Shown here piece after piece: positions 12,891 to 23,192 of a DNA stretch of 64,000 nt. The stretch comes from an uncultured Chloroflexia bacterium (GTDB taxonomy: Bacteria > Chloroflexota > Limnocylindria > Limnocylindrales > CSP1-4): contig CAWJQZ010000002.1 of the NCBI GenBank assembly GCA_963844945.1, positions 2,123 to 66,122 on the forward strand. Direction: 5' to 3'. Made by a program: the position numbers and the translations under genes. A model generated the notes under the pieces. It was not told the origin of the DNA. It ran no database searches and saw only the letters and a list, made by a program, of their open reading frames with translations. How positions within the stretch are numbered: the first letter of the stretch is position 1; each line of letters begins with the position of its first letter.

Positions 12891-12927
12891 GGAGGGGCGC
12901 CGGCCGTCGCCGCCGGCCGTGCGTGGG

Positions 12928-12960
12928 GACGCCCGAAGGACCGCCGGCCCTTCGGGCGTC
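12928..12960. terminator. bidirectional hairpin terminator candidate
   Basis: Perfect 12-bp arms GACGCCCGAAGG / CCTTCGGGCGTC with a 9-nt loop, between convergent genes. Confidence 0.5.
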
Positions 12961-12999
12961 GTTGCGTGCGCGACCGCCGCGGTCACGCGATCCGCGCGC

Positions 13000-13681
13000 T
13001 CAGTTGAGGCCGCCGACCTGGATCGCGATGAGGCTGTTGTCGTCGAGGACGGGGCCGTTGCTCGTGAACGCCGTCGAGCAGGCCACGGAGACGGTCGTGG
13101 TGCCCGAGAGCGTCGTCGTGGCCACCAGCGCATAGGGCGACCGCTGCGCGGCGTAGTTCGACGCGTCGATGTCCTGCGTGGCGCTCGCCCCGGGGGCGTT
13201 GATGGTGCACGTGGCGGAGTTGTTGATACCGAAGCGGTACTTCATCTGCCCGGCGGCCTGGAGGACGTAGGTCCCGGCCGGCAGCGTCAGGCTCGTGACG
13301 GTCGTCGGGAAGACGCTCACGCCGGCGACCACGGTGACGCTGGTGCTCGTCGTGGACCACGCGTGGGCCGCGCCCGCCGCTCCGGTGGGTCCGATCGGGC
13401 CGGTGTCGCCGGTGGGGCCGGCCGGCCCCTGGATCCCCTGCGCGGCCGGTCGGTCCGGCGGGCCCGGTCGGGCCGGACGTGTTGAACCCGACGAGCTGGC
13501 CGCCGCCGGCGAGCTTGCACTGCGGGATCGTCGCCATCGCGACGGCGCCGCTCGTGTTGAAGCATGCGTAGAGCGTGGGCGGGTTGCTCCCGGCGACGAC
13601 CGAGCCGGCCGCGACGGCGACGAGCACGAACGCCGCGGCGCCGACGATGGGAGCCCGGATGCGCAGGTGGGACGCAGACAT
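13000..13681 (-). pseudogene. secreted collagen-like protein, paralog 1 (head class C), 1-nt frameshift
   Basis: AAGGAG RBS. MSASHLRIRAPIVGAAAFVLVAVAAG signal, NPPTLYACFNTSGAVAMATIPQCKLAGGGQLV module, then Gly-X-Y repeats broken by one extra nt at ~13444-13447. Removing it gives 12 perfect triplets. The C-terminal head ends NSLIAIQVGGLN. Confidence 0.7.
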
Positions 13682-13702
13682 CGGAGACGCTCCTTGTGCG
13701 GG

Positions 13703-13767
13703 GCGTCCCGCATCCACCGGCGGGACGCGATCCGCTGACTGTCGTCCCGTCGCGGGGGACGCGTCAA
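13703..13767 (-). promoter_or_regulatory. paralog-1 leader: TTGACG -35-like hexamer plus CGTCCCGC/GCGGGACG palindrome
   Basis: Minus-sense TTGACG (13762-13767), then 32 nt, then a 9-bp-arm inverted repeat (13703-13728). The repeat ends 21 nt before the ATG codon (13679-13681). Confidence 0.45.
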
Positions 13768-13832
13768 CGACCCGGTGGGGTAGGCGAGGGGCCCGCCACG
13801 GACCGCCGCGCACAGGCCGGGGCCGGGAGTGC

Positions 13833-13862
13833 CATGCATCTTCATGCACCCTATTCATGCAT
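13833..13862. repeat. three CATGCA repeats (two are ATGCAT palindromes) in an AT-richer patch
   Basis: CATGCA at 13833, 13843 and 13856, 75-105 nt upstream of the ABC operon start. Operator-like. Confidence 0.35.
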
Positions 13863-13879
13863 GGACTCGCGCATCCCAC

Positions 13880-13920
13880 GCTCCTCGGGTACCCTGTGCG
13901 GACCCCGAGCCCCGAGGAGC
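13880..13920 (+). promoter_or_regulatory. leader stem-loop upstream of the ABC operon
   Basis: Perfect 10-bp stem GCTCCTCGGG / CCCGAGGAGC with a 21-nt loop. The loop holds an alternative CCCGAG partner. The stem ends 6 nt before the GAGGAGGAG RBS. Confidence 0.4.
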
Positions 13921-18776: not shown

Positions 18777-19675
18777 TGTCGGACTGGGACGAGCTTCGGG
18801 AGGACGGCCCGGGGACGGGCGCAGGCTCCAGGGCGGGAGAGGACGCCGGCGCGCCGGGATGGCCGGCCGGCCGCGGAGCGGCCGCCGGGGCGCGGTTCGT
18901 CGGGAAGACGGCGCTGATCACCGGCGGGTCGTCGGGGATCGGCCTCGCGACGGCCACGCGGCTCGTCGCCGAGGGCGCGTCGGTCGTCATCCTCGCGCGC
19001 GACCAGGGGCGGATCGGCGAGGCCGTGCTCGCGCTGCGAGAGGTCGCGGCCGTCACCGGCGAGCTGCTCGGCATCGACCCGCCGCGCGTCGAGGGCGCGT
19101 CCGTGGACGTCATGGACGAGGACGGCGTCCGCCTGGCCGCCGACGCGGCCGCGAAGCTCGGCGACCGACTGGACATCTGCATCGCCTCGGCGGGGATGGA
19201 CGGCGCCGCGGACGACGCGCTCGAGATCCCGGTCGAGGAGTTCCGCAAGGTCCTCGAGGTGAACGTGCTGGGGCTCTTCATCGCGGCACGGGCCGCCGCC
19301 GAGCGGATGGCGCTCGACCGGCTGGGCGGCGCGATCGTCCTCGTCGCGAGCGTCAACGGCCTGATCGCCGAGCCCGAGTTCGCCGACTACAACACGAGCA
19401 AGGGCGGCGCGGTGATGCTCGCGAAGTCGCTCGCGAAGGACTGGGCGGGCAGGGGGATCCGCGTCAACGCGATCTGCCCGGGCTACGTGGACACGCCGAT
19501 GACCGCGGCATACCTCGCCGACCCGCCGACCGCGGCGACCATCGTGGGGCGGATCCCGATGGGCCGCGTGGCGGACCCTTCGGAGATCGCCGCGGCGATC
19601 GCCTTCCTCGCCTCGGACGACGCGAGCTACGTCACCGGGACGGCGATGATCGTGGACGGGGGCTGGACGGCGTAG
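18776..19675 (+). CDS. short-chain dehydrogenase/reductase
   Basis: TGATG overlap with the previous stop. TGGSSGIG cofactor motif and YNTSK catalytic motif. The N-terminal 40 aa are low complexity, so the start is uncertain. Confidence 0.8.
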   Translation: MSDWDELREDGPGTGAGSRAGEDAGAPGWPAGRGAAAGARFVGKTALITGGSSGIGLATATRLVAEGASVVILARDQGRIGEAVLALREVAAVTGELLGIDPPRVEGASVDVMDEDGVRLAADAAAKLGDRLDICIASAGMDGAADDALEIPVEEFRKVLEVNVLGLFIAARAAAERMALDRLGGAIVLVASVNGLIAEPEFADYNTSKGGAVMLAKSLAKDWAGRGIRVNAICPGYVDTPMTAAYLADPPTAATIVGRIPMGRVADPSEIAAAIAFLASDDASYVTGTAMIVDGGWTA

Positions 19676-19681
19676 AGACGA

Positions 19682-19708
19682 GGGGGCCGCGCCCGCGGCG
19701 CGGCCCCC
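19682..19708. terminator. bidirectional hairpin terminator candidate
   Basis: Perfect 11-bp arms GGGGGCCGCGC / GCGCGGCCCCC with a 5-nt loop, 7 nt after the SDR stop. Confidence 0.55.
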
Positions 19709-19711
19709 TGC

Positions 19712-20351
19712 TGTGTCGGCTGGCACGTACGGCCGCCGTACGGCGCGGCTCGAGTCGCGCAGGCGGCCGCGGACCTCGACCCGTTCGACGGGAAGTGCCG
19801 CGGTCGTCCACGCTGCTGTGGTCCACGACCGACGGAGCCGCTGCCGTCGAGCGTCGGCGCGGAGGCCGTAGATGCCGCTCCCTCGGACAGCAGCCGGTTG
19901 CCCGTGTCCACGTGACGACCGCGCCTCCGCCGATGCGCCTGTGGTGCCGTCGGGCAGTTCGGACGCCGCCGTCGCACTGGATCCCGGACGTCGTGTGGGT
20001 CGAACCAGACCTCGCGATGATGTCTGGCCGACGGTGTAGCACGTTCACGATGTTCGTCGCCGAACCGGGCCGGCCGGTCCCGTCGACCCCGGTCGCGCCG
20101 GTGGCCGTGCCCTGTGGCGCCGGTGGGCCCGGGGACGCCCTGCGTGCTCCAGTAGGCGAGCTGGCCGCCGCCGGCGAGCTTGCACTGCGGGACGGTCGCC
20201 ATCGCGACCTGGCCCGCTCGTGTTGAAGCAGGCGTAGAGCGGTGGGCGGGTCCGTGGACGCGGCGAGCGTGCCGCCCGCGGCGACGGCGACGAGGGCGAA
20301 GGCGGCGATGCCGACGGCGAGCGCGCGGGGACGGGGATGGGACGCGGGCAT
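19712..20351 (-). pseudogene. secreted collagen-like protein, paralog 2 (head class A), multiply frameshifted
   Basis: MPASHPRPRALAVGIAAFALVAVAAGGTLAAS is in one frame, LYACFNTSG in a second, and QVAMATVPQCKLAGGGQLAYWSTQGVPGPTGATG in a third. Head fragments (SATNIVNV, IQCDGGV...IGGGAVVT, LDGSGSV) are scattered over frames. No clean stop before the terminator, so the 3' end is approximate. Confidence 0.6.
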
Positions 20352-20373
20352 CGGATGCCTCCCCTCGATGCGG

Positions 20374-20436
20374 GCGTCCCGCCGCAGGGGCGGGACGCGA
20401 TGCGCGCGAGGATGCGCGGCAGACCGGGTACGTCAA
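20374..20436 (-). promoter_or_regulatory. paralog-2 leader: TTGACG plus perfect 10-bp palindrome
   Basis: Minus-sense TTGACG (20431-20436), then 31 nt, then GCGTCCCGCC-CCTGC-GGCGGGACGC (20374-20398). The palindrome ends 22 nt before the ATG codon (20349-20351). Confidence 0.45.
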
Positions 20437-20486
20437 TGGAGAACGTGCGGTCCGGCTGTGCCCGCCAGCGCTCGTGCGGTCGGCCG

Positions 20487-21062
20487 TCAGGGCGTGACGC
20501 TCGCGCACACCGCCCACCCGCTGACCGACAGGTTCTCCCCGGCGACCAGCCCGCTGCCGTCCGCCTTCCCGGCGACCAGGTTCCAGTGGCCCGAGCTCGG
20601 GTAGCTGGAGAGCACCGCGCCATCGGCCGCGGACCCGAAGATCGTCACGTGCGCGCCGCCGCCGAGAGGCTGCTTCCCGCTCGGACATGCGACGGCCATG
20701 GCGTACGAGCGAGTGCCGACGATGTTGGTGCCGCCGTTCCCGTTCACCTGCTCGTACCCTGCGACCGACCCGCTCACCCCGGTCGGGCCCTGGGGGCCGG
20801 TCGGACCGACGGATCCGGTGGCGCCGGTGGGTCCGGTCGGGCCTGGGACGGGTGCCGTCCCCCAGTAGACCAGGCGCCCGCCGCCCGCGAGCTTGCAGGT
20901 GTTCAGGTCGCTCATCGCCACCTGTCCGCTCGTGTTGAAGCAGGCGTAGAGCGTCGGCGGGTTCGTCGAAGCGGCGAGCGTGCCGCCGGCCGCGACGGAG
21001 ACCAGGGCGAACGCGCCGATGCCGATCGCGATGGCGCGTGCGCGCGGACGGACGTTGACCAT
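20487..21062 (-). CDS. secreted collagen-like protein, paralog 3 (head class A)
   Basis: Intact 191 aa: signal MVNVRPRARAIAIGIGAFALVSVAAGGTLAAS, module NPPTLYACFNTSGQVAMSDLNTCKLAGGGRLV, 9 Gly-X-Y triplets, and a head with CPSGKQPLGGG...GHWNLVAGKADGSG...SGWAVC. Confidence 0.75.
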   Translation of the reverse strand: MVNVRPRARAIAIGIGAFALVSVAAGGTLAASTNPPTLYACFNTSGQVAMSDLNTCKLAGGGRLVYWGTAPVPGPTGPTGATGSVGPTGPQGPTGVSGSVAGYEQVNGNGGTNIVGTRSYAMAVACPSGKQPLGGGAHVTIFGSAADGAVLSSYPSSGHWNLVAGKADGSGLVAGENLSVSGWAVCASVTP

Positions 21063-21085
21063 GGCGTTCCCACCCGATGCGTCGA

Positions 21086-21162
21086 TCCCGCGTCACGGGC
21101 GGGACGATGCCGAGGACCGTAGCCTGCGGCTGCCGACGCCGGCATCGGGTGATTCCCTCGAT
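21086..21162 (-). promoter_or_regulatory. paralog-3 leader: palindrome plus 26-nt box shared with paralog 5
   Basis: TCCCGC/GCGGGA 6-bp arms at 21086-21104. Box CGCCGGCATCGGGTGATTCCCTCGAT at 21137-21162, identical to 22746-22771. Confidence 0.45.
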
Positions 21163-21250
21163 GTCATCGGACGGGGCCCGGACGGCCGGGCGGGAAGCGA
21201 CGAGGCCGCGCATCGCGGCGCGGCCCCGTCGGAGTGGACACGTCGGCGGA

Positions 21251-21937
21251 TCAGGGGATGACGACCGCCGGGTACTCGACCTGCAGGATCACCTTGCCCG
21301 TGACGCTCGGCTTCGGGACGGAGGCGGTGCCGCACAGGGTGTCGAACGCCCGCAGCGACGAGTCGGCCGTGAGCGTCCTGGTGGACTTGGCGCCGATCGA
21401 GATGGGGACGGAGCCGGCGGGGTTGAACTGCTGGTCGAACAGGTAGTTCGAGTCGCCGGTGTCCACCTTGATGGTCGAGGACAGGCAGGTGAGGACGCCC
21501 GACCCGGAGATCGAGAGGATCTCGCCCGAGATCGGTGTCAGGCGCGTCCCCGCAGGGAAGGTCGTCGTGCTCGTGACCGGGCACGGGGTGACTCCCGCGG
21601 CGCACTCGGGGACGGTGAAGTCCCACTCGACGAGCGTCGGGGCGTACGGCGCCCCGGTCGGCCCGACCGGACCCGTCGGCCCTGCCACGCCCGTCGCGCC
21701 CTGAGGCCCGGTGGGCCCGGGGACGGGGGCGGTCCCCCAGCTCACGAGCCGGCCGCCCCCGGCGAGCTTGCAGGTGTTGACGTCGCTCAAGGCGACCTGC
21801 CCGTAGGTGTTGTAGCAGGCGTAGAGCGTCGGCGGGTTCGTGGAGGCGGCAAGGGTGCCGCCGGCGGCGACGACGACGAGCGCGAAGGCGCCCACCCCCA
21901 CGGCGAGCGCGCGGAGGCGTGAGCGGGATCTGTGCAT
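21251..21937 (-). CDS. secreted collagen-like protein, paralog 4 (head class B)
   Basis: Start taken at MHRSRSRLRALAVGVGAFALVVVAAGG (GGGAG RBS) by analogy with its paralogs. Module PPTLYACYNTYGQVALSDVNTCKLAGGGRLV, 8 Gly-X-Y triplets, and an unrelated Cys-containing head (TVPECAAGVTPCP...). Confidence 0.7.
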   Translation of the reverse strand: MHRSRSRLRALAVGVGAFALVVVAAGGTLAASTNPPTLYACYNTYGQVALSDVNTCKLAGGGRLVSWGTAPVPGPTGPQGATGVAGPTGPVGPTGAPYAPTLVEWDFTVPECAAGVTPCPVTSTTTFPAGTRLTPISGEILSISGSGVLTCLSSTIKVDTGDSNYLFDQQFNPAGSVPISIGAKSTRTLTADSSLRAFDTLCGTASVPKPSVTGKVILQVEYPAVVIP

Positions 21938-21957
21938 GAGATCTCCCGGGGACGCTG

Positions 21958-22019
21958 GATCCCACAACAGGGGCGGGACGCGGTGGGCGGACTCTGCGCG
22001 CGCGGGGGGTCGTCGTCAA
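21958..22019 (-). promoter_or_regulatory. paralog-4 leader: TTGACG plus degenerate palindrome
   Basis: Minus-sense TTGACG (22014-22019), then 31 nt, then CGCGTCCCGCC left arm. The right arm has degenerated to TGGGAT. Confidence 0.35.
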
Positions 22020-22064
22020 TGGCGGCGCCGAGCAGTGTCGCGCGCGACGGCGGCTCGGGGTCGG

Positions 22065-22670
22065 TCAGCGCGTCTTCATGCAGGAGACGCTCATGCCCCA
22101 GTGGATCGACTCGTTCGTGTTGAACGCCTGGCCGTCGAGCTTCGCGAACGTCACCCGCCATCCGCCCTCCAGCGTGTTGTCGCTGCCGACGAGGGCGGCG
22201 GCGCGGACCGGGCTGCCATTCACGTAGAGGACGGCACTTCCGCCGCCACCCGTCGGATAGGCGTTGGGGACGGACGGACAGTCGAGCGTGTGCGTGTACG
22301 TGTAGACGGTCCCTGCCTGCGCGGGAGGGCCATCCACGCCGCCGACGGTCGTGTACTCGAACGAGGCGGATCCCGCGGCACCCGTCGGACCGGTGGGACC
22401 CGTGGCGCCCGCGGAGCCCGCGGAGCCGGCCGCGCCCGTGGGCCCGGCGGGACCCGTCGGACCGACCGTGTTGAACCCGACCAGCTGGCCGCCGCCGGTG
22501 AGCTTGCACTGGGCCGTGGTGCCCATCGCCACCTGGCCATACGCGTTGAAGCACGCGTACAGCGTGGTCGGCGTGGAGGCGGCGAGCGCTCCGCCGGCGG
22601 CGACCGCGACGAGCACGAAGGCGGAGACCCCCACCGCGAGGGCGCGCAGACGGGACCACGAGACAGGCAT
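22065..22670 (-). CDS. secreted collagen-like protein, paralog 5 (head class A)
   Basis: Start at MPVSWSRLRALAVGVSAFVLVAVAAGG. Module TTLYACFNAYGQVAMGTTAQCKLTGGGQLV, 11 Gly-X-Y triplets, and a head DCPSVPNAYPTGGGG...GGWRVTFAKLDGQA...HWGMSVSC that aligns with paralog 3. Confidence 0.7.
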   Translation of the reverse strand: MPVSWSRLRALAVGVSAFVLVAVAAGGALAASTPTTLYACFNAYGQVAMGTTAQCKLTGGGQLVGFNTVGPTGPAGPTGAAGSAGSAGATGPTGPTGAAGSASFEYTTVGGVDGPPAQAGTVYTYTHTLDCPSVPNAYPTGGGGSAVLYVNGSPVRAAALVGSDNTLEGGWRVTFAKLDGQAFNTNESIHWGMSVSCMKTR

Positions 22671-22693
22671 CGAACCATCCCCTCGATGCGGTT

Positions 22694-22771
22694 GTCCCGC
22701 ATCACGGGCGGGACGACACGCAGGACGGTAGCCGGTGGATGTGCGCGCCGGCATCGGGTGATTCCCTCGAT
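22694..22771 (-). promoter_or_regulatory. paralog-5 leader: palindrome plus 26-nt box shared with paralog 3
   Basis: GTCCCGC/GCGGGAC 7-bp arms at 22694-22714. Identical 26-nt box at 22746-22771. About 100 nt aligns with the paralog-3 leader. Confidence 0.45.
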
Positions 22772-22858
22772 ATCGCCCGGCGCGGCCGGGCGGGCACCGC
22801 GCGTCGACGGGCCGGACGCCCGGCCAGGCGCCCGACCGGCGTGCTACCGTCGCCGTCG

Positions 22859-23074
22859 ATGTCCGACCCGCGACCCCGCCTTCGCACCGTCGTCGCCGCG
22901 CTCTCCCTCGCCCTTCTCGCGGCGGCCGCGCTCGCGCCCGCAGCCTTCGCCGACGTGGTGACCGGCGGAGACACGGAGGGCGGCACGCTCCTCTTCTGGC
23001 TCACCGTCATCGCGTGCGTCGGGGTCGCCGCGGGGACCGCGATCTTCTACGTCTACCGCCGGCGGCACCGCTAA
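22859..23074 (+). CDS. small signal-peptide plus C-terminal TM-anchor protein (71 aa)
   Basis: MSDPRPRLRTVVAALSLALLAAAALAPAAFA signal, a 12-aa exposed segment, the TM LLFWLTVIACVGVAAGTAIFYVY, and a basic tail RRRHR. Confidence 0.4.
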   Translation: MSDPRPRLRTVVAALSLALLAAAALAPAAFADVVTGGDTEGGTLLFWLTVIACVGVAAGTAIFYVYRRRHR

Positions 23075-23192
23075 AATCGGGGCCCCGTGCGGAGCCCGCC
23101 ATGGAGCCACCCGCGCGGCCACGCCATCGTCCCCCGAGGCCACCGCCCCGGCCCGTCGCCACATCGCTCCCGCGCCCACCCGGAGACCCGCC

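Follow-up and report, generated by a model that had tools for sequence, protein, structure and literature searches.

A conserved inverted repeat in the leaders of a Chloroflexota family of collagen-repeat genes: a candidate 5'-proximal RNA stem-loop

The paralogous array and its leader hairpins

The sequence analysed here is a 64,000-nt window of high-GC DNA from an uncultured Chloroflexia bacterium (contig CAWJQZ010000002.1 of assembly GCA_963844945.1), and all coordinates given below are those of the whole window unless another locus is named. Five paralogous genes (copies 1 to 5) lie on the minus strand of this window, and the leader of each contains an inverted repeat; the nature of this repeat, as an RNA or a DNA element, is the subject of this work. 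Copy 3 (20487-21062; 191 amino acids), copy 4 (21251-21937; 228 amino acids) and copy 5 (22065-22670; 201 amino acids) are intact. Copy 1 (13000-13681, with its start codon corrected to 13681) has one frameshift in its collagen repeat relative to a 225-amino-acid ortholog (P0099). Copy 2 is a remnant spread over three reading frames, from about 19700 (an approximate 3' limit) to 20351, and is either a pseudogene or a product of assembly indels. Since several genes are or look frameshifted, namely, copies 1 and 2, an HD-GYP gene elsewhere in the window and several genes of a related locus, L037, the assemblies may carry indel errors, and the pseudogene calls for copies 1 and 2 are therefore uncertain.

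Each paralog encodes a protein of the same layout: a signal anchor, a Cys-containing segment with the consensus LYAC(F/Y)N..G.V.M.....CKL.GGG.LV, a short GPTG collagen-like repeat, and a C-terminal part that differs from copy to copy. For example, copy 3 consists of a signal anchor, an LYACxN...CKLxGGG domain, a GPTG collagen repeat and a beta-sandwich head. The matches of the Pfam Collagen family to the GPTG repeat are only weak. AlphaFold predicts the head of copy 3 confidently as a beta-sandwich, with a predicted local distance difference test score (pLDDT) of at least 93 in each 10-residue block of residues 101-190, and the best matches of this head in the PDB are the C-terminal domains of phage tailspikes, the tips of R-pyocin fibres and trimeric lectins, all of which are weak and none of which reaches E <= 0.001. 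The variable head is encoded at 20487-20790 (copy 3 residues 100-189), and the Pfam phage tail-collar family PF07484 is matched in some homologs. On the basis of these models, the family looks like one of small trimeric stalk-and-head surface proteins, which serves here as context rather than as proof. The homologs found come solely from metagenomes and from metagenome-assembled genomes (MAGs) labelled Chloroflexi, Chloroflexota or Chloroflexia, and a literature search on the gene family returned nothing relevant.

Read in the minus sense, the inverted repeat is strongest in copy 2 (20374-20398; 44.2 bits), where 10-bp arms enclose five bases (GCGTCCCGCC-CCTGC-GGCGGGACGC as DNA and GCGUCCCGCC-CCUGC-GGCGGGACGC as RNA). 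Copy 1 (13703-13728; 37.6 bits) has 9-bp arms and an 8-nt loop, and copy 5 (22694-22714; 36.9 bits) has 7 bp and two further pairs past a C.A mismatch. In copy 3 (21085-21105; 34.0 bits), GUCCCGC/GCGGGAU gives seven pairs, namely, 6-bp arms at 21086-21104 and a closing G.U, and in the weak copy 4 (21958-21981; 32.9 bits) the left arm is perfect and the right arm (GTGGGATC, or GUGGGAU) pairs by means of two G.U pairs. Rereading the sequence reproduced the arm coordinates that a preliminary description of this locus had assigned to all five copies, as well as the arm lengths in copies 1, 2, 3 and 5; the pairing in copies 3 and 4 had been underestimated, each having seven sense-strand pairs when G.U is allowed.

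The position of the repeat is conserved. The stem ends 20-23 nt before the start codon in all five copies, and 8, 7, 10, 10 and 9 nt before the Shine-Dalgarno sequence in copies 1 to 5, respectively (roughly 7-12 nt overall). The core is CCCGC/GCGGG, with 7-10 bp in most copies and a loop of about 7 nt. When the five paralogs are aligned, CGTCCCGCC in the left arm is the sole invariant run of the leader, and the mean pairwise identity is 0.93 in the left arm and 0.72 in the right arm, versus 0.37-0.44 in the immediate flanks and 0.54-0.59 in the first 30 coding bases. A search of the whole window against Rfam gave no leader match at the gathering threshold, and a permissive search (E<=5) of 20300-22850 gave only one chance fragment of cobalamin type (E=3). 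No terminator-like sites were detected in 19600-23000 or 12900-13900; the stems are followed by G/C-rich sequence with no U-run.

The pattern GTCCCGC-N4-12-GCGGGAC occurs three times, always in a family leader, against 0.09 occurrences expected from shuffled sequences, so that the motif does not occur at random frequency. The 9-mer CGTCCCGCC alone occurs 15 times against 7 expected and is not rare; it is thus the pairing of the two arms that is the special feature. A covariance model (R1) was built from 14 hairpins (A5) and searched over both strands of 263 kb. It gave 16 matches at E<0.01, two of which were absent from the model-building set, and every match was on the sense strand immediately 5' of a family gene; the next score, 21.9 bits, belonged to the antisense of copy 2. 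The element is thus a real and family-specific one, and the regulon that the preliminary description had hoped to define with the palindrome shows no member outside the family in these 263 kb.

For comparison among relatives, we assembled a set of 50 distinct family leaders, taken from 44 loci. This type of hairpin is present in about 20 of them, and the other leaders are unrelated; the earlier statement that every paralog carries the palindrome thus holds for the five of the window but not for the family at large. The hairpin-bearing leaders come from at least five genomes or metagenome sources, and the hairpin has been kept across these although the proteins are only about 40-65% identical.

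The array itself is less stable. The syntenic relative L037 is 91-94% identical to the window in housekeeping genes but its array is almost entirely different in content: in a comparison of window 19700-22840 with L037 493-3591, only copy 4 aligns, at 78%. Such a difference indicates that the array turns over fast. Also in L037, a chimeric remnant at 1450-1740 consists of a promoter and half a hairpin fused to an unrelated 77-amino-acid frame. In another Chloroflexota genome (L040 and L041), the segment 3880-5885, which is syntenic with window ~22700-23190, contains an extracytoplasmic function (ECF)-type sigma factor gene (Sigma70_r2/r4_2) and a gene for a 487-amino-acid partner with faint BNR matches; the two lie between hisD and the single family gene, directly upstream of the latter. 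The equivalent slot of the window contains only a small membrane protein gene.

Predicted promoters and transcript start

Upstream of the hairpins, two arrangements are found, all on the minus strand. The first is that of copies 1, 2 and 4, in which TTGACG is followed by a -10-like hexamer: TTGACG at 20431-20436 and CATCCT at 20409-20414 with a 16-nt spacer in copy 2 (20409-20436), TTGACG at 13762-13767 and GACAGT at 13738-13743 with an 18-nt spacer in copy 1 (13738-13767), and TTGACG at 22014-22019 and CAGAGT at 21991-21996 with a 17-nt spacer in copy 4 (21991-22019). The three TTGACG positions had been located correctly in the preliminary description, but their distance from the arm had been given as 31-32 nt; in fact, TTGACG ends 33-34 nt before CGTCCCGCC. 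Among the 50 family leaders, TTGAC is present at -125 to -66 in 30, compared with about one expected, and in all 30 an nAnnnT hexamer (CATCCT, CAGAGT, CACAGT and others) follows 16-18 nt downstream. A TTGACN hexamer, a spacer of 16-18 nt, a -10 hexamer with A at its second and T at its sixth position, and a conserved location are what is expected of a sigma-70-type promoter, and we regard this arrangement as a predicted promoter of that type.

The second arrangement is that of copies 3 (21116-21162) and 5 (22725-22771), which have in common the 26-nt box ATCGAGGGAATCACCCGATGCCGGCG, at 21137-21162 and 22746-22771, respectively. These coordinates had been reported correctly, and the box has exactly two copies, no third copy being found at up to three mismatches. 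After a variable spacer, the box is followed by a -10-like hexamer, TACGGT at 21116-21121 in copy 3 and TACCGT at 22725-22730 in copy 5. Between the two copies, the box is identical at 26 of 26 positions and GGCTACSGTCCT at 11 of 12, and the spacer between them is unconserved, which is the pattern of a promoter. In addition, the box core GGAAYCAC-N2-3-ATGSC recurs before family genes of two other MAGs, at -99 (L026) and -107 (L009), and in each case CAnnnT follows 17 nt on. Thus the box marks a second class of predicted promoter, one whose -35 hexamer is poor and whose upstream element is extended, and a promoter of this kind may be activator-dependent. The division into two promoter classes proposed earlier is borne out by this recurrence and by the TACSGT hexamers of copies 3 and 5, whose distance from the hairpin equals that of the -10 hexamers in the TTGACG class.

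Two other readings of the box were rejected. The box resembles a ribosome-binding site followed by ATG (ATCGAGGGAATCACCCGATGCC; compare ATCGAGGGGA...CGATGCC at real starts) and might thus open a leader peptide, but the frame it opens matches that of the gene in copy 5 and not in copy 3, L009 or L026, and the encoded peptides are unrelated. As an ECF-sigma promoter (GGAAT/C... CGT), it would have CGT at a spacing of 12-13 nt and not 16-18 nt, and the downstream motif is unconserved.

In the family leaders, 9-13 nt separate the -10 hexamer from the beginning of the hairpin. Measured to GTCCC, the distance is 11-12 nt in copies 1, 2 and 4 and, counted from TACSGT, 10 nt in copies 3 and 5; given these similar values, the first base of the stem would fall between about +2 and +6 of the predicted transcript in both classes. 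The suggestion that transcription starts at or just before the palindrome agrees with the family-conserved promoter, and we retain it as a prediction.

Pairing of the arms and alternative explanations

The preliminary description put two explanations of the palindrome on an equal footing: the operator of a dimeric regulator or an RNA stem-loop. To compare them, we used a pairing table (A7) of 18 aligned hairpins, comprising 162 cells; note that the sequences are paralogous and that the cells are therefore not independent. In this table, 87.7% of the cells pair, including 4 cells, at three pairs, with changes on both sides and 14 cells that pair despite a one-sided change, which are precisely the 14 cells of G.U type. 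At the three apical pairs, pairing is kept in every sequence, the six variant cells included, and the consensus structure from RNAalifold is an apical 5-bp stem. Non-Watson-Crick cells are of G.U type in 14 cases and of A.C type in 3 (binomial p=0.013, with non-independent cells). Since the right arm contains more G than C, neutral transitions should favour A.C, which is the opposite of the observed bias. The arms also differ in the number of substitutions, with 10 in the left arm and 32 in the right arm of the 18 sequences (Fisher p=0.0004). Neither bias would be expected of a symmetric homodimer site.

Individual sequences provide further examples of maintained pairing. The hairpin of L042, which lies in the syntenic slot (GCGUCCUGC/GUGGGGCGC), pairs fully as sense RNA only, with three wobble pairs. 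Compensatory changes are found in L039 (G-C to A-U), L020 (U-A to G-C) and L017 (C-G to U-A), and in the L037 ortholog of copy 1 pairing is kept through an A-to-G change (U-A to U.G) in combination with a 1-nt deletion in the loop. Most copies have an N5 spacing between the arms, but copy 1 has N6, L007 about N3 and L020 N8, and L023 has a bulged U. When folded individually, three of the hairpins are more stable than shuffled sequences, with z-scores of -3.1 for copy 2, -2.3 for copy 1 and -2.2 for copy 5.

An operator explanation requires that a dimeric transcription factor bind the inverted repeat CGTCCCGCC-N5-GGCGGGACG near +15 and block or modulate transcription of all family genes. A 9-N5-9 inverted repeat just past the -10 hexamer does resemble the operators of LacI, TetR or ArsR that overlap +1: the element overlaps the predicted start region, most copies have the N5 spacing, and sequence is conserved above structure, with a nearly invariant left arm, a loop that keeps a YTG core and weak covariation. 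The ECF sigma factor and its partner 5' of the family gene in the syntenic relative also make dedicated transcriptional control plausible, but such a sigma factor reads -35 and -10 motifs rather than a palindrome at +15. In contrast to those operators, the half-sites here are under unequal constraint, as the substitution counts show; the mismatch bias towards G.U is confined to one strand and would be invisible to double-stranded DNA; and spacing seems not to be strictly fixed, since N6, about N3 and N8 spacings and a bulge occur among otherwise good copies. Furthermore, no gene for a DNA-binding regulator was found when the arrays of the window, L037, L039 and L042 and the genes next to them were inspected, in agreement with the earlier remark that none is obvious there. 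We consider the operator explanation rather unlikely.

Taken together, the strand-biased mismatches, unequal arms, compensatory changes, variable loop and lack of a linked regulator favour RNA over a DNA operator, so that of the two explanations the stem-loop was upheld and the equal weight of the operator was not. Our preferred reading, to which we give about an even chance, is that the palindrome reflects, at the DNA level, a short, GC-rich stem-loop of the sense-strand RNA, which would form close to the 5' end of the transcript and act in cis.

Several results weigh against this RNA stem-loop. Covariation is thin, and the support comes mostly from conservation among paralogous sequences; the test on related leaders that had been suggested to separate RNA structure from operator gave the four double-change cells in favour of pairing and otherwise mostly sequence conservation. 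Pairing is lacking in 20 of the 162 cells, most of which belong to stem positions 2 and 4. Over all family leaders (-62 to -8), the mean folding z-score is -0.40 against -0.12 for the genomic background, which is not significant (p=0.064), and folds that include 36 nt of coding sequence often exchange the hairpin for pairing with the coding start. The strongest hairpin, that of copy 2, precedes a gene that is frameshifted several times. In copy 4 and the related L037+1922, a perfect left arm is accompanied by a decayed or lost right arm, which pure pairing does not explain. Finally, the transcript start is a prediction only, and a generic promoter scan of 19600-23000 and 12900-13900 found nothing; the reason for the blank scan is that the -10 hexamers match TATAAT at just 3 of 6 positions. 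A broader claim, namely, that a hairpin precedes the Shine-Dalgarno sequence throughout the family, was rejected: GC stems can be seen by eye in most leaders, but the z-scores of the -62 to -8 region are not significantly below background. For this reason, the hairpin claim is confined to the subset with CGTCCCGCC-type arms.

Some of these results would also fit a chance GC-rich repeat without function, inherited with the promoter and leader on duplication and homogenised by gene conversion. The paralogs do have a common 5' module in an array of fast turnover, folding across the family does not exceed background, other members of the family have unrelated leaders, and the best copy precedes a broken gene. 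However, the two arms are islands of identity that exceed even the coding start, a pattern not expected from conversion tracts; the repeat has been kept across at least five MAGs or metagenomes despite the protein divergence noted above; and G-to-A changes in the right arm, which would break RNA pairs, are avoided. We assign a low probability to this explanation.

The persistence of the left arm where the right arm has decayed implies a constraint beyond hairpin pairing, and the left arm probably has a second, sequence-specific role. This role could involve a trans-acting partner, a function at the DNA level near the start, or pairing with the G-rich ribosome-binding site, of which copy 3 offers the one clear case. 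There, the left arm and loop (UCCCGCCCG) match the ribosome-binding region (CGGGUGGGA) by complementarity, and their pairing is part of the minimum-energy fold. When the untranslated region (UTR) is folded alone, the probability of pairing between the left arm and the Shine-Dalgarno sequence is 0.35-0.5 in L002, L017, L037+1922 and L042. The heptamer GCGTCCC is present in 17 of 46 leaders, including leaders of other types and sites near the Shine-Dalgarno sequence, against about 1.3 occurrences expected across the 46, and at coding positions +6 to +13 (codons 3-5, Ala-Ser-Arg/His) in 12 of 46 starts against about 0.5 occurrences expected. Much of this enrichment is due to homology and to the Ala-Ser-Arg codons. 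In the window, the coding heptamer lies at 13668-13675 and 20338-20345, and the right arm could in principle pair either with the left arm or with this coding heptamer. A putative switch to pairing between the right arm and GCGUCCC at codons 3-5 is often predicted by partition-function folds, but covariation in its support was not found: the GUGGG variants of the right arm in copy 4, L023 and L039 are not matched on the coding side. The possibility that the left arm is a relic of a duplicated coding start was dropped because no alignment extends past a few bases.

These observations on the left arm could be explained if (C)GCGUCCCGCC were itself the regulatory element, as an anti-Shine-Dalgarno sequence or as the site of a protein or small RNA acting in trans, with the right arm as a competing decoy that controls its availability. 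The survival of the left arm after loss of the right arm, the complementarity in copy 3, the pairing probabilities in the four leaders and the enrichment of GCGTCCC in leaders and coding starts are all in its favour. Against it, the complementarity to the Shine-Dalgarno sequence is unconserved, since copy 1 lacks it and copies 2 and 4 have no more than 4-5 bp of it, and any UCCC fits any ribosome-binding site of GGGA type. In addition, the enrichment was counted on homologs and its coding copy is explained by codon usage at Ala-Ser-Arg, and neither a sensor domain nor a partner was identified. A regulatory left arm of this kind is improbable in our judgement. A still more specific variant, in which a protein or small RNA dedicated to this purpose recognises the invariant, C-rich left arm CGCGUCCCGCC in trans and the hairpin gates access to that arm, we consider very unlikely. 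If it were true, a single handle would coordinate the expression of hypervariable collagen-stalk fibres or make it mutually exclusive, a family-specific post-transcriptional control with no described counterpart in Chloroflexota.

Possible function and other features of the window

The RNA stem-loop that we prefer could act as follows. Each family gene would be transcribed as a monocistronic mRNA from a sigma-70-type promoter, either TTGACN-16/18-nAnnnT or the box variant with TACSGT, and the hairpin would come to lie at the extreme 5' end of this transcript. There it may protect the message against decay that depends on the 5' end. It may also lock the C-rich GUCCCGCC in the stem and thereby bar it from pairing with the G-rich ribosome-binding site, i.e., serve as a translation insulator. 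Its action would most likely be in cis and post-transcriptional.

Stabilising stem-loops at the 5' end are a known class of element; examples given in the literature include the leaders of ompA and papA of E. coli and aprE of B. subtilis and the 5' UTR of vacA of H. pylori (PMC3997798, references 93-95 and 109 therein; PMC4843948). As in these examples, a short stable hairpin is situated a few nucleotides from the (here predicted) 5' end and precedes a strong ribosome-binding site without including it; no ligand-binding domain is needed, and the genes encode secreted or surface proteins. Unlike these examples, the 5' end here is predicted from sequence, so that the class is assigned by analogy; the element is common to a whole paralogous family; and one arm is conserved in sequence beyond the needs of a structural stabiliser. 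The element is real and ordinary in kind, simply not yet catalogued, and the proposed mechanism belongs to a known class.

Leaders that sequester the Shine-Dalgarno sequence, such as ROSE and fourU thermometers, offer a second comparison. Like them, the leaders described here are short 5' UTRs in which a C/U-rich segment could pair with a G-rich ribosome-binding site. Unlike them, the conserved hairpin excludes the Shine-Dalgarno sequence, ending 7-10 nt upstream of it, and pairing of that sequence is predicted in some copies only.

At the level of the gene family, a parallel is offered by multigene families, such as the vsp/vlp-type genes of Mycoplasma, in which a conserved 5' module is joined to sequences for variable surface proteins. 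The family studied here is similar in that the promoter, leader, signal and N-terminal region are conserved, the C-terminal region is variable, and the genes form arrays with broken copies and fast turnover. It differs in that neither phase-variable repeats nor invertible segments nor a recombinase were seen here.

If the hairpin is a 5' stabiliser or insulator, it would be an uncatalogued cis-element of a phylum in which hardly any transcripts have been mapped. The combination of promoter, hairpin, strong ribosome-binding site and signal anchor provides a compact signature with which to search for members of this uncharacterised family, whose products are probably trimeric surface fibres with heads that evolve fast. 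The covariance model could seed an RNA family and aid the annotation of MAGs; no long-standing question is opened by it.

Two other structured regions of the window deserve mention. GC-rich hairpins without a T-run (GGGGCCGCGCC...GCGCGGCC in the minus sense) follow the stop codons of copy 4 (21195-21235) and copy 2 (19690-19720), and hairpins of a like type are found 3' of the family genes of L037. They may be terminators of a type that is missed by a consensus scan. On the plus strand, a c-di-GMP-II riboswitch (RF01786; 50333-50416, 60.7 bits, E 4.9e-11) is located upstream of a membrane protein gene, which, past an apparent frameshift, runs into an HD-GYP domain (HDIGKIG..., HHHEWFNGSGYPQ) and extends to about 52086. 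With the riboswitch in front and this HD-GYP continuation, the gene looks like a c-di-GMP phosphodiesterase gene under the control of c-di-GMP.

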